A stretch of 64,000 bases of DNA from a virus (IMGVR_UViG_3300028805_000057:1-64000), one strand, 5' to 3'. Shown: positions 3,995 to 5,436, counted from the stretch's first letter. Numbers and translations: made by a program. The notes: generated by a model from the sequence alone, not told the origin.

Positions 3995-4150
3995 GAGAAG
4001 GATACAAACGAATAATTTCGATTTAAGTATTTGAACGATCAATCAAGTATTTAAACCGAAACTGTTCATATGTCGTATCCTCTTGTTGGCAAGGGAATTG
4101 AGATTGCACTAGTTTAAAGACTGAAAGCAGTTTAGTTCCCTTGCTTTGTT
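3995..4150 (+). ncRNA. rod-shaped hairpin RNA A plus terminator-like hairpin
   Basis: 3995-4084 folds as one long imperfect stem; 4089-4144 GCAAGGGAA/TTCCCTTGC plus T-tract; no ORF. Confidence 0.6.
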
Positions 4151-4258
4151 TTTTAGATTGAACGAAGTGAGAACTGCAGTTTTCTAAAAGAAAAGTACGC
4201 TAAAATATTTATTTATATTATAGCAAGTAAACATTTTACATAATAAAGGAGGTAGCTT

Positions 4259-4513
4259 ATGAAGAAAGTTATTGAAGAGTATTATTGTGATTGTTGCGAA
4301 AAACAGGTTGAAAGTAAAGATAAACTTTATTATCATGATATATATTTATATGATGATGAAATAAATAGAAGATTATTTGCAACTCATGGAAATTTCTGCA
4401 AAGAATGCAATAATAAATATAATAATGACTTAAAGAGTATAATAAAAATACTTTCTAATCATTATGGAAATGATATTAAGAAAGATAAAGAAGAGGAAGA
4501 TGACCTCTTATAA
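4259..4513 (+). CDS. small zinc-finger-like protein
   Basis: YYCDCC and FCKEC motifs; AAGGAGG RBS; similar to 45413..45661. Confidence 0.75.
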   Translation: MKKVIEEYYCDCCEKQVESKDKLYYHDIYLYDDEINRRLFATHGNFCKECNNKYNNDLKSIIKILSNHYGNDIKKDKEEEDDLL

Positions 4514-4608
4514 AAACATCAAGTCCTGAGAGTGGACTATAAATACTCTCGCAATTTTTTTGTCTCATAATATGGTAACTATAAAAAATATTATGGAGGG
4601 CTTAGCCT

Positions 4609-4803
4609 ATGTTAATGAGTACTTACAGAGAATTGACTACAAACAAAGCAGTGAAGGCAGCGCAACGTGATTACTATGAAATTATGGAAACTAAAGAAGA
4701 TTATGATTTAGGTCTTCGGAGAGTTGATCATCATTTTAGGCACGTATGCAAGAAAGCTAGTGTTTATAGGCATGGAAGAAGGAACGCGTTATACAGCAAG
4801 TAA
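4609..4803 (+). CDS. hypothetical protein
   Basis: GGAGG RBS; motif at 4550; terminator-like hairpin downstream. Confidence 0.7.
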   Translation: MLMSTYRELTTNKAVKAAQRDYYEIMETKEDYDLGLRRVDHHFRHVCKKASVYRHGRRNALYSK

Positions 4804-4937
4804 GCCAGGTAATTTGTAATAGAAACAAAATGAGTAGGACCTTATGGTTCTATTCGTTTTTTAAATAGTTTCGCTAAAAATAATGCCTCTAATATGCAAC
4901 AGTAGTTATTATACAACTAATTTATGGAGGTAGAAGA

Positions 4938-5189
4938 ATGAAGTTTAATTTTAGTTTAGAAAGTGATAACCTTGAGGATGATCTTAAGAAGATTATCGAG
5001 ACAGTAACTGAAGCAATTTGCAGAGATACTGATAGAGAGCTTACGAGAATGAAAGCACTTAATCAGGTTAATGCAACTGAACAGGTTAAGGGACTTGATA
5101 ACCGAATTGATGGAGTTGAATCTAGGTTGAATCTTTGTGAAGTAGATTTAAAGAAAGTAAAAGAATCTACTAAAAAGAGTGATAAGTAA
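4938..5189 (+). CDS. small coiled-coil protein
   Basis: heptad pattern LDNRIDGVESRLNLCEVDL; GGAGG RBS; motif at 4872. Confidence 0.75.
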   Translation: MKFNFSLESDNLEDDLKKIIETVTEAICRDTDRELTRMKALNQVNATEQVKGLDNRIDGVESRLNLCEVDLKKVKESTKKSDK

Positions 5190-5282
5190 CTAACAGGCGG
5201 TCCTGAGCAAGACCTAAAACTGCTCTTATTTTTTCAGATCGAATATAGTGAAAAGAATCGCGAAATTTATGTTTTATATATT

Positions 5283-5436
5283 GGAGCGGTAGGGCTCGTG
5301 GATGTAAATTTTAGATGGTTTATATAGATATTTGAAATGATCAAACAAGTGTCTATACAAGCCAGATAAAGTTTGCATATCTACATATCCCTACCTCTTC
5401 CAAGTCGAGAGGGCTGCAAATAATTTCGGTCCTCTC
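5283..5436 (+). ncRNA. rod-shaped hairpin RNA B plus GAGAGG/CCTCTC hairpin
   Basis: 5281-5403 long imperfect stem (GGTAGGG/CCCTACC, TATAGATATTTG/CAAGTGTCTATA); loop matches RNA A. Confidence 0.6.

Follow-up and report, generated by a model that had tools for sequence, protein, structure and literature searches.

Two paralogous rod-shaped RNAs behind early promoters of a phage: a long helix kept by selection and a tentative role as double-stranded-RNA handle

Why would a phage place two long hairpins with unlike stems and nearly the same tip directly behind early promoters? The question is raised by two elements, here called RNA1 and RNA2, in the first 64 kb (64,000 nucleotides, IMGVR_UViG_3300028805_000057:1-64000; the window) of a 147,894-bp virus record from IMG/VR, termed G000. 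This genome has 30% G+C, almost every gene lies on its + strand, and its first 7 kb form a dense row of small cassettes, in which a CGC-N15-TAWWAT motif is joined to a short gene and a terminator. The initial annotation had described two long imperfect hairpins at 3995-4084 and 5283-5403 with plus-strand G-U pairs, and had taken them for a small RNA family presenting a conserved protein-binding loop. The hairpins and the G-U pairs (four in RNA1, seven in RNA2) are confirmed here and the two RNAs are indeed related. However, it is the long helix and not the loop that is kept between phages, and we tentatively favour a double-strand-specific host protein as its partner.

Both elements fold far more stably than shuffled sequences. 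RNA1 (3995..4084, + strand) is a 90-nt hairpin of 35 pairs in which G3995 pairs with U4084, with a minimum free energy (MFE) of -28.2 kcal/mol compared to -11.9 +/- 2.8 for shuffles (z -5.8). RNA2 (5283..5403, + strand) is a 121-nt hairpin of 45 pairs, whose helix runs from G5283 to near 5401; 11 basal bp are followed by an internal loop (3x4) and, above it, a long helix that includes a tandem G.A. Its MFE is -52.6 kcal/mol compared to -22.4 +/- 3.1 for shuffles (z -9.8), and in a scan of the whole genome it is the most stable of the 110-nt + strand windows.

RNA1 and RNA2 are paralogues and constitute a small family of structured RNAs, as a covariance model (R1) made from RNA2 alone with its MFE structure finds RNA1 at 24.5 bits (E 6e-4). 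In this comparison RNA1 aligns to RNA2 minus the 11-bp middle helix; 12 of the 45 pairs are the same, seven are changed on one side and 12 on both sides, three are broken and 11 gapped. Within G000 the two are most alike at the tip (identities of 9/12, 8/11 and 9/12), whereas at the base only 3/12 and 7/13 positions agree. The motif ATTTGAA-N1-2-GATCAA-N-CAAGT is present exactly twice in the genome, both times on the + strand and at the tip of a rod. In RNA1 the shared tip covers 4028-4049 and encloses the apical loop ACGAUCAA (4035..4042, + strand), and in RNA2 the apical loop AAAUGAUCAAA (5335..5345, + strand) includes the palindrome UGAUCA. The local alignment score of the two RNAs is 28, which is reached by only one of 2000 dinucleotide shuffles (15.0 +/- 2.3) and by 6 of 2976 random genomic windows. 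The likeness of the tips on differing stems, as first noticed, is therefore beyond chance.

What is maintained over longer times can be read from the sole close relative found, phage G001 (IMGVR_UViG_3300028591_000007, 135,705 bp, with terminal repeats), the DNA polymerase of which is 86% identical to that of G000. R1 detects an RNA2 orthologue there (L168:12464-12582, minus strand; 42.4 bits, E 4e-9), which is syntenic, being preceded by the 83-aa gene homologue with its terminator and by a TCGCGAAATTTA..TATATT promoter. It folds with -44 kcal/mol (z -7.6). The two orthologues differ at 48 of 116 aligned positions and form 45 pairs each, of which 22 are the same, five differ on one side and 13 on both, two are broken and three gapped; the model-guided alignment is fitted to the structure and thus biased towards it, and independent MFE folds give the same pair counts. 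Random substitution did not keep the -43.6 kcal/mol in any of 500 runs at random positions (mean -20.8) or of 500 runs at the same positions (mean -26.7). Selection thus keeps the long helix, not its sequence. Small conserved open reading frames (ORFs) were not found in the rods, where the short frames differ between the orthologues.

For RNA2 this selection can also be assigned to a strand. G.U oppositions outnumber A.C oppositions 7:1 in RNA2 of G000 and 7:1 in its orthologue, and the MFE of the + and the - strand is -52.6 and -34.3 kcal/mol in G000 (a difference of 18 kcal/mol) and -44 and -34.5 kcal/mol in G001 (9.5 kcal/mol). Both the excess of G.U and the strand asymmetry argue that the + strand transcript, and not a palindrome in the DNA, is under selection. 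In RNA1 the ratio is 4:2 and the other strand folds with -30.7 kcal/mol, without loss of stability; this RNA is assigned to the + strand because of its promoter and terminator.

Between the phages, the best-kept part of RNA2 is the basal helix (9/12 and 11/13), and the internal loop some 11 bp further up retains AUA(U) on its 3' side (4/4). The top helix retains 6/12 positions per arm and the loop 5/12. The loop of G001 reads AUGAAAUUUA compared to AAAUGAUCAAA in G000 and lacks GAUCAA; only UAUUU(G/A)A..YGA, the 5' half of the tip, persists. The same loop is thus a feature within one genome and not of the whole family, and a conserved apical loop as the defining feature, for which the initial annotation had required conservation in homologues, is not supported. 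All three rod loops hold a self-complementary core (GAUC in RNA1, UGAUCA in RNA2, AAAUUU in RNA2 of G001). Under a composition model the joint chance of this is about 0.4-1.3%, which is suggestive only. A split in which the base is conserved between phages and the tip within one phage is unusual and points to two recognition surfaces.

The two rods are embedded in different transcription units. The RNA1 promoter (3946..3994, + strand) has an A/T-rich upstream tract, which is found again at 2765 and 2819 (repeat family D4), CGC at 3971-3973, a 15-nt spacer and TATAAT at 3989-3994. Behind the rod lies an intrinsic terminator (4088..4154, + strand) with a stem at 4088-4145 (MFE -27.3, z -5.4) followed by UUUGUUUUUU, and the next gene (4259) is separately promoted (CGC at 4198). 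Because it has its own promoter and a strong terminator and is followed by a separately promoted gene, RNA1 appears as a closed unit and is predicted to be a stand-alone, ORF-free small RNA gene of about 155 nt. RNA2 does not combine these features. Its promoter (5259..5282, + strand) has CGC at 5259-5261, a 15-nt spacer and TATATT at 5277-5282, and the TCGCGAAATTTA..TATATTG element is kept in G001 and in a strain contig described below. The second hairpin past RNA2 (5404..5449, + strand) has its stem at 5404-5438 and a U-run at 5445-5449, six nt off, and is a weak terminator at best; its counterpart in G001 has 20 bp and no U-run. Of the terminator-like hairpins reported behind both rods, only that of RNA1 is a true intrinsic terminator. 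There is no CGC-N15-TAWWAT between 5259 and 6922, i.e., none before the first ORF behind RNA2 (5533..5844, + strand) or the next three genes, and this ORF heads a promoter-less gene run to 6914. In G001 the first gene after RNA2 is a different one and promoter-less as well. Since the U-run is not adjacent and the downstream genes have no promoter, RNA2 is predicted to form the 5' leader of an early operon, where termination may be partial, and the notion of a free small RNA applies to RNA1 only. Within this leader the motif CTCGCATTAA(G)TTTTT(A)GAG is duplicated at 5434-5452 and 5489-5507, after each of two hairpins, and might act on the phage polymerase as a sequence-specific signal to pause or terminate. 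Elsewhere in the window, the initial 18 nt of RNA2 recur in nearly the same form, GAGCGG(A)ATAGGGCTCGT, at 39743-39760 just upstream of a ribosome-binding site, where they can form a 4-bp hairpin with a purine-rich loop.

Each rod begins at the base after the promoter motif, which the initial annotation had placed ahead of both, and about 25 + strand copies of CGC-N15-TAWWAT besides the RNA1 promoter are clustered in the early regions of G000. In several cassettes (10364, 138405, 139184) a ribosome-binding site lies directly 3' of the hexamer, which places transcription start right after the hexamer and not 6-7 nt further. We therefore infer that the transcript starts with the purine immediately 3' of the hexamer, so that its first base would already lie within the terminal helix. 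This helix starts 0-2 nt past the hexamer in RNA1, RNA2 and the G001 orthologue; the terminal helix of RNA3 looks similarly placed, and a tRNA-like RNA at 3181, read from the sequence and unfolded, looks alike in its start position. G000 encodes a 974-aa single-chain two-barrel RNA polymerase, a member of a large phage family. A search for a T7-like RNA polymerase (Pfam PF00940) gave no match in the phage, but none in the control genomes either.

A 6.8-kb contig from the same metagenome (L153, Ga0247611_10021896) is a 99% strain variant, in which RNA2 is identical and the end of the upstream gene differs from that in the window at 5100-5300. Moreover, 29 nt are inserted in this contig that are similar to the spacer (4157-4205) behind the RNA1 terminator. 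These differences are evidence for a cassette exchange at shared promoter and terminator flanks. As the upstream end is altered in L153 and the downstream gene in G001, promoter and rod form one self-contained module that stays together while the neighbouring genes get exchanged. A counterpart of RNA1 was not found in G001, where other cassettes fill the interval.

Within the searches made, the family is new, narrow and of an expected kind, and it is confined to a small clade of two genomes and one strain variant. Positions 3700-5600 gave no match in a DNA similarity search against 50,697 phage records. In IMG/VR the tip pattern had 120 chance matches, none at a hairpin tip, and the base pattern retrieved only G001 besides two chance matches in coding DNA; in the JGI metagenomes the base pattern retrieved only G001 and the 99%-identical L153. 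With the flanking proteins as queries (the sigma-like ORF, the 83-aa ORF alone and aligned, the 114-aa ORF) no further loci were obtained in IMG/VR or the JGI metagenomes; the 83-aa protein has seven homologues in Logan/ENA assemblies. The covariance search, which had been proposed with a model from both RNAs and was done with RNA2 alone, recovered RNA1 and the G001 orthologue, no other match in these two genomes and nothing in 50 viral records, 21 of which are at least 90% complete, that encode a related two-barrel RNA polymerase of 43-85% identity. Rfam 15, including 6S RNA, Y RNA, pRNA, SRP RNA and known small RNAs, gave no match in the 64-kb window at gathering thresholds, and at E <= 10 over 3700-7300 only chance matches of the miRNA type (15-22 bits, with thresholds of 34-99).

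As the tentative answer to the opening question we regard the rods, by analogy, as possible double-stranded-RNA handles for a double-strand-specific host protein, with RNase III as the prime candidate, and we give this reading a probability of roughly one in three. On RNA2 this protein would bind or cut at the basal helix and internal loop and thereby determine how stable the early operon mRNA is or how it is processed, and the blunt 5'-terminal helix might in addition shield the RNA from 5'-end-dependent decay. RNA1, being free and short, would associate with this partner in trans and act as competitor or modulator. In early RNA of T7 and SP82, RNase III hairpins govern the processing and stability of mRNA. 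RNase III is favoured because of the helix length, the conserved basal helix with its internal loop, this precedent in early phage RNA and other long intergenic hairpins of G000, namely a three-copy rod family and the hairpins at 49.9 kb. This wider use of hairpins fits transcripts of a phage polymerase that are later processed or stabilised. For bacterial RNase III, helix length and internal loops are the reactivity epitopes; substrates have a helix of some two turns or more, and an internal loop or bulge often directs the cut, but some bulged helices are bound without being cut (PMC1540722). All three rods have features of this type, with 35-45 pairs, far in excess of two turns, and an internal loop about 11 bp (one turn) above the base; such features are necessary but not sufficient.

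Several points weigh against this reading. The likeness of the tips within one phage is left unexplained by it, and the statements on conservation come from a single orthologue pair, RNA2 of G000 and G001. No RNase III or double-stranded-RNA-binding domain (dsRBD) gene is recognisable in the phage, so that the partner is assumed to be encoded by the host. RNase III requires only about 20 bp, so 35-45 bp exceed the need, and classical phage RNase III sites are intergenic, not 5'-terminal, and do not have their own promoter or terminator.

The rods might do without any partner. A stable helix from +1 would then act as a passive 5' cap that blocks 5'-end-dependent decay (of the RppH, RNase J1 or RNase Y type in low-GC Gram-positive hosts), with RNA1 as a by-product or remnant cassette. 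The terminal helix begins at or within 2 nt of the predicted first base in all three rods, RNA2 stands at the head of an operon, and all 5' ends are purine-rich and Shine-Dalgarno-like (GAGAAGGA, GGAGCGG, GAGGAGG), resembling the 5' stabilisers of Bacillus such as STAB-SD and the SP82 polypurine stabiliser. However, a hairpin of 5-10 bp suffices for this effect, yet 45 pairs are kept via 13 compensatory changes. Most other cassettes of the same promoter type have short unstructured leaders, nothing is left for RNA1 to protect with a strong terminator behind it, and the shared tip is not accounted for; we consider this explanation unlikely. Still less probable is a signal in cis to the transcribing polymerase, i.e., antitermination or pausing as by the put RNAs of phage HK022 on E. 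coli RNA polymerase, which would allow readthrough of cassette terminators. It would suit the position of the rods directly 3' of promoters and 5' of terminator-like hairpins, the promoter-less gene run after RNA2 and the density of terminators in the early region. However, put RNAs are two short hairpins of conserved sequence and not 45-bp rods, no such signals are known for this polymerase family, and the gene after RNA1 has its own promoter, which makes us view it as very unlikely. That the palindrome serves in the DNA, as replication origin, cruciform or site for a dimeric DNA-binding protein, with incidental transcription, is the least probable explanation and largely excluded for RNA2. 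Both elements are long inverted repeats, RNA1 folds equally on both strands, and its GATC core lies on the dyad axis. Moreover, in three uncultured beta-proteobacterial metagenome-assembled genomes (loci L208, L211, L214) the 18-mer of the tip is one arm of an inverted repeat of about 55 bp; this repeat is probably an operator and its resemblance to the phage tip likely a coincidence. However, only selection at the RNA level explains the excess of G.U in two lineages and the strand asymmetry of RNA2, the ends of the helices match the promoter hexamer and the next hairpin exactly, and in RNA2 the loop palindromes do not line up with the axis of the stem.

In other explanations the RNAs act in trans. 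As decoys like the VA RNAs of adenovirus, blunt-ended rods made immediately early would titrate a host double-stranded-RNA-binding enzyme or an RNA-sensing defence, and the tip would give specificity for the partner in the host of this phage. The very early location at the genome end with early promoters, the stand-alone RNA1, the two paralogues with different stems and the same tip, and a tip that differs in G001 with possibly another host all agree with this. Yet we also think it unlikely, as no known bacterial defence sensor is linked to such rods, RNA2 is a leader and not a free RNA, an exact-pattern search of species genomes found the tip motif in no host element and the family is limited to one small clade. 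A related, slightly more doubtful proposal joins both recognition surfaces in VA-like rods, with basal helix and loop as common docking site and the palindromic tip as determinant specific to the host or the phage; this tip might work by pairing between the loops of RNA1 and the RNA2 leader. Pairing could also be the function itself: RNA1 would kiss the RNA2 leader by 5 bp (GAUCA:UGAUC), the rods might dimerise, or the loop might be an antisense seed for a host mRNA. As a palindromic core makes the same loop also the complementary loop, this would explain a match of the tips within one phage only, which is what is observed; palindromes are present in all three loops, and one partner is free and the other a leader. 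However, the statistics are weak, as 34% of the permutations of the A/U-only G001 loop also contain a 6-nt palindrome. An extended antisense target was rejected for both G000 and G001 (best matches E >= 0.07), TTGATC is not found in the loops of other early RNAs, and G001 has RNA2 without RNA1, so that RNA-RNA regulation is improbable as well. The double-stranded-RNA handle is kept as the preferred reading. The functions of phage non-coding RNAs are almost unknown, and the rods show clearly how compensatory changes preserve a long helix. Should a partner be identified, whether RNase III, the sensor of a defence system or the sister RNA, we would learn how the earliest transcripts are controlled or protected in a virulent phage of Gram-positive bacteria from gut or rumen.

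The rods are not the only RNA genes at this genome end. At least five separately promoted RNA genes are present in the first 7 kb, i.e., two tRNA look-alikes, the two rods and one 65-nt hairpin RNA, and the same promoter type serves them all. The latter belongs to a third promoter-to-RNA unit (window 6922-7015), where CGC-N15-TATAAT precedes an RNA of about 65 nt that opens with the extended Shine-Dalgarno-like GAGGUG(G)AU and contains two hairpins, a small one at the 5' end and a terminator of 16 bp. G001 (L133 about 3600-3670, minus strand) shares 54 nt of this unit at 100% identity, whereas for the flanking proteins the identity is only about 50%. In G001, the leftmost transcription unit (L168 reverse-complement coordinates 120-290) is a tRNA-like RNA homologous to G000 3181-3330, with a 37-nt identical core, a GUUCGAA T-loop and a TATATT-type promoter of the same kind as that of RNA2. 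At 3733-3915 a promoter is followed by a transcript of about 150 nt, with a 9-codon mini-ORF as its sole ORF (AGGAGG ahead of an internal ATG-ATT-TAT-TGA), and a terminator; this may be a further non-coding or leader-peptide unit. Further downstream, at 11577-11704, an exact 64-nt tandem duplication contains a ribosome-binding site.

A second rod family is found at 255-385, 9226-9356 and 60955-61090 of the window and at least once in G001 (L162:4241-4376, minus strand). Its members have about 115-130 nt, a consensus hairpin of 39 pairs and a strongly conserved core GCC..AAGGCCUGUUUGG ... GAAAUGGGCC. They are among the most stable windows genome-wide and without match in Rfam, and two of the copies directly follow ORFs (the sigma-like gene and the DNA polymerase), not promoters.

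A number of known identities were considered for RNA1 and RNA2 and rejected. A type III antitoxin, one of the functions first suggested, is made of tandem direct repeats of about 34-36 nt (ToxI-like) beside a gene for an endoribonuclease toxin, but both rods consist of one inverted repeat and are not covered by any direct-repeat family, and the neighbouring ORFs have no toxin domains; the flanking ORFs have no RNA-related domain either. The phage has no TROVE match for a Ro60/Y RNA system and at E <= 0.1 no RVT_1 match anywhere for a retron msr-msd RNA, and a partner encoded by the phage itself was dropped, as neither an RNase III nor a dsRBD gene was found there. A mimic of CRISPR repeats (RNA anti-CRISPR) or of other host repeats was discarded too: in 185,579 species genomes the exact tip pattern, a search that would miss divergent repeats, gave 53 single matches, scattered across all phyla, and no array. 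At the base there is no R-box consensus of an integron attC-like site, and no integrase was noticed; the internal loop is no k-turn, since no tandem G.A lies next to a bulge. N4-type promoter hairpins do not apply, as the rods are downstream of the start and just 2 of about 28 promoters have one.

Among known systems, the other hairpins of G000 itself (the three-copy rod at 261/9232/60958 and the leader hairpins at 49919-50489) are, like the rods, long, on the + strand, in non-coding gaps and kept in G001. However, they lie after or between genes and not at the start of transcription and are not matched by R1; the only link in sequence is the octamer TAGGGCTC at some 5' bases, which also starts the hairpins at 49934 and 50380. 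Ro60-bound Y RNAs share the rod shape, the terminal stem formed by both ends, the conserved basal helix and the variable distal part, but the rods have no tRNA-like or large internal-loop domain and no match in Rfam. The pRNA of the phi29 family (RF00044) is likewise encoded at an early genome end, has a 5'/3' helix and varies in sequence while its fold is kept, and its loops pair between molecules. It differs by a three-way junction and belongs to 20-kb protein-primed phages, and it is not matched here even at E <= 10. The VA RNAs I and II of adenovirus are also two paralogous viral RNAs (about 100-160 nt) with paired 5' and 3' ends, a long apical stem and a fold that is kept as the sequence diverges. 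These protein decoys of a eukaryotic virus are transcribed by Pol III, have a complex central domain and target PKR; we know of no bacterial counterpart of this target. The RNase III hairpins R0.3-R1.3 of T7 and those of the Bacillus phage SP82 are sites of about 50-60 nt that separate cistrons within a long transcript and lack their own promoter and terminator, whereas the rods have 90-121 nt, extend from the predicted +1 and are in one case a free gene. Both, however, belong to early phage RNA and fold into imperfect hairpins that span two helical turns or more and contain an internal loop, with the structure kept over the sequence (substrate rules in PMC1540722).

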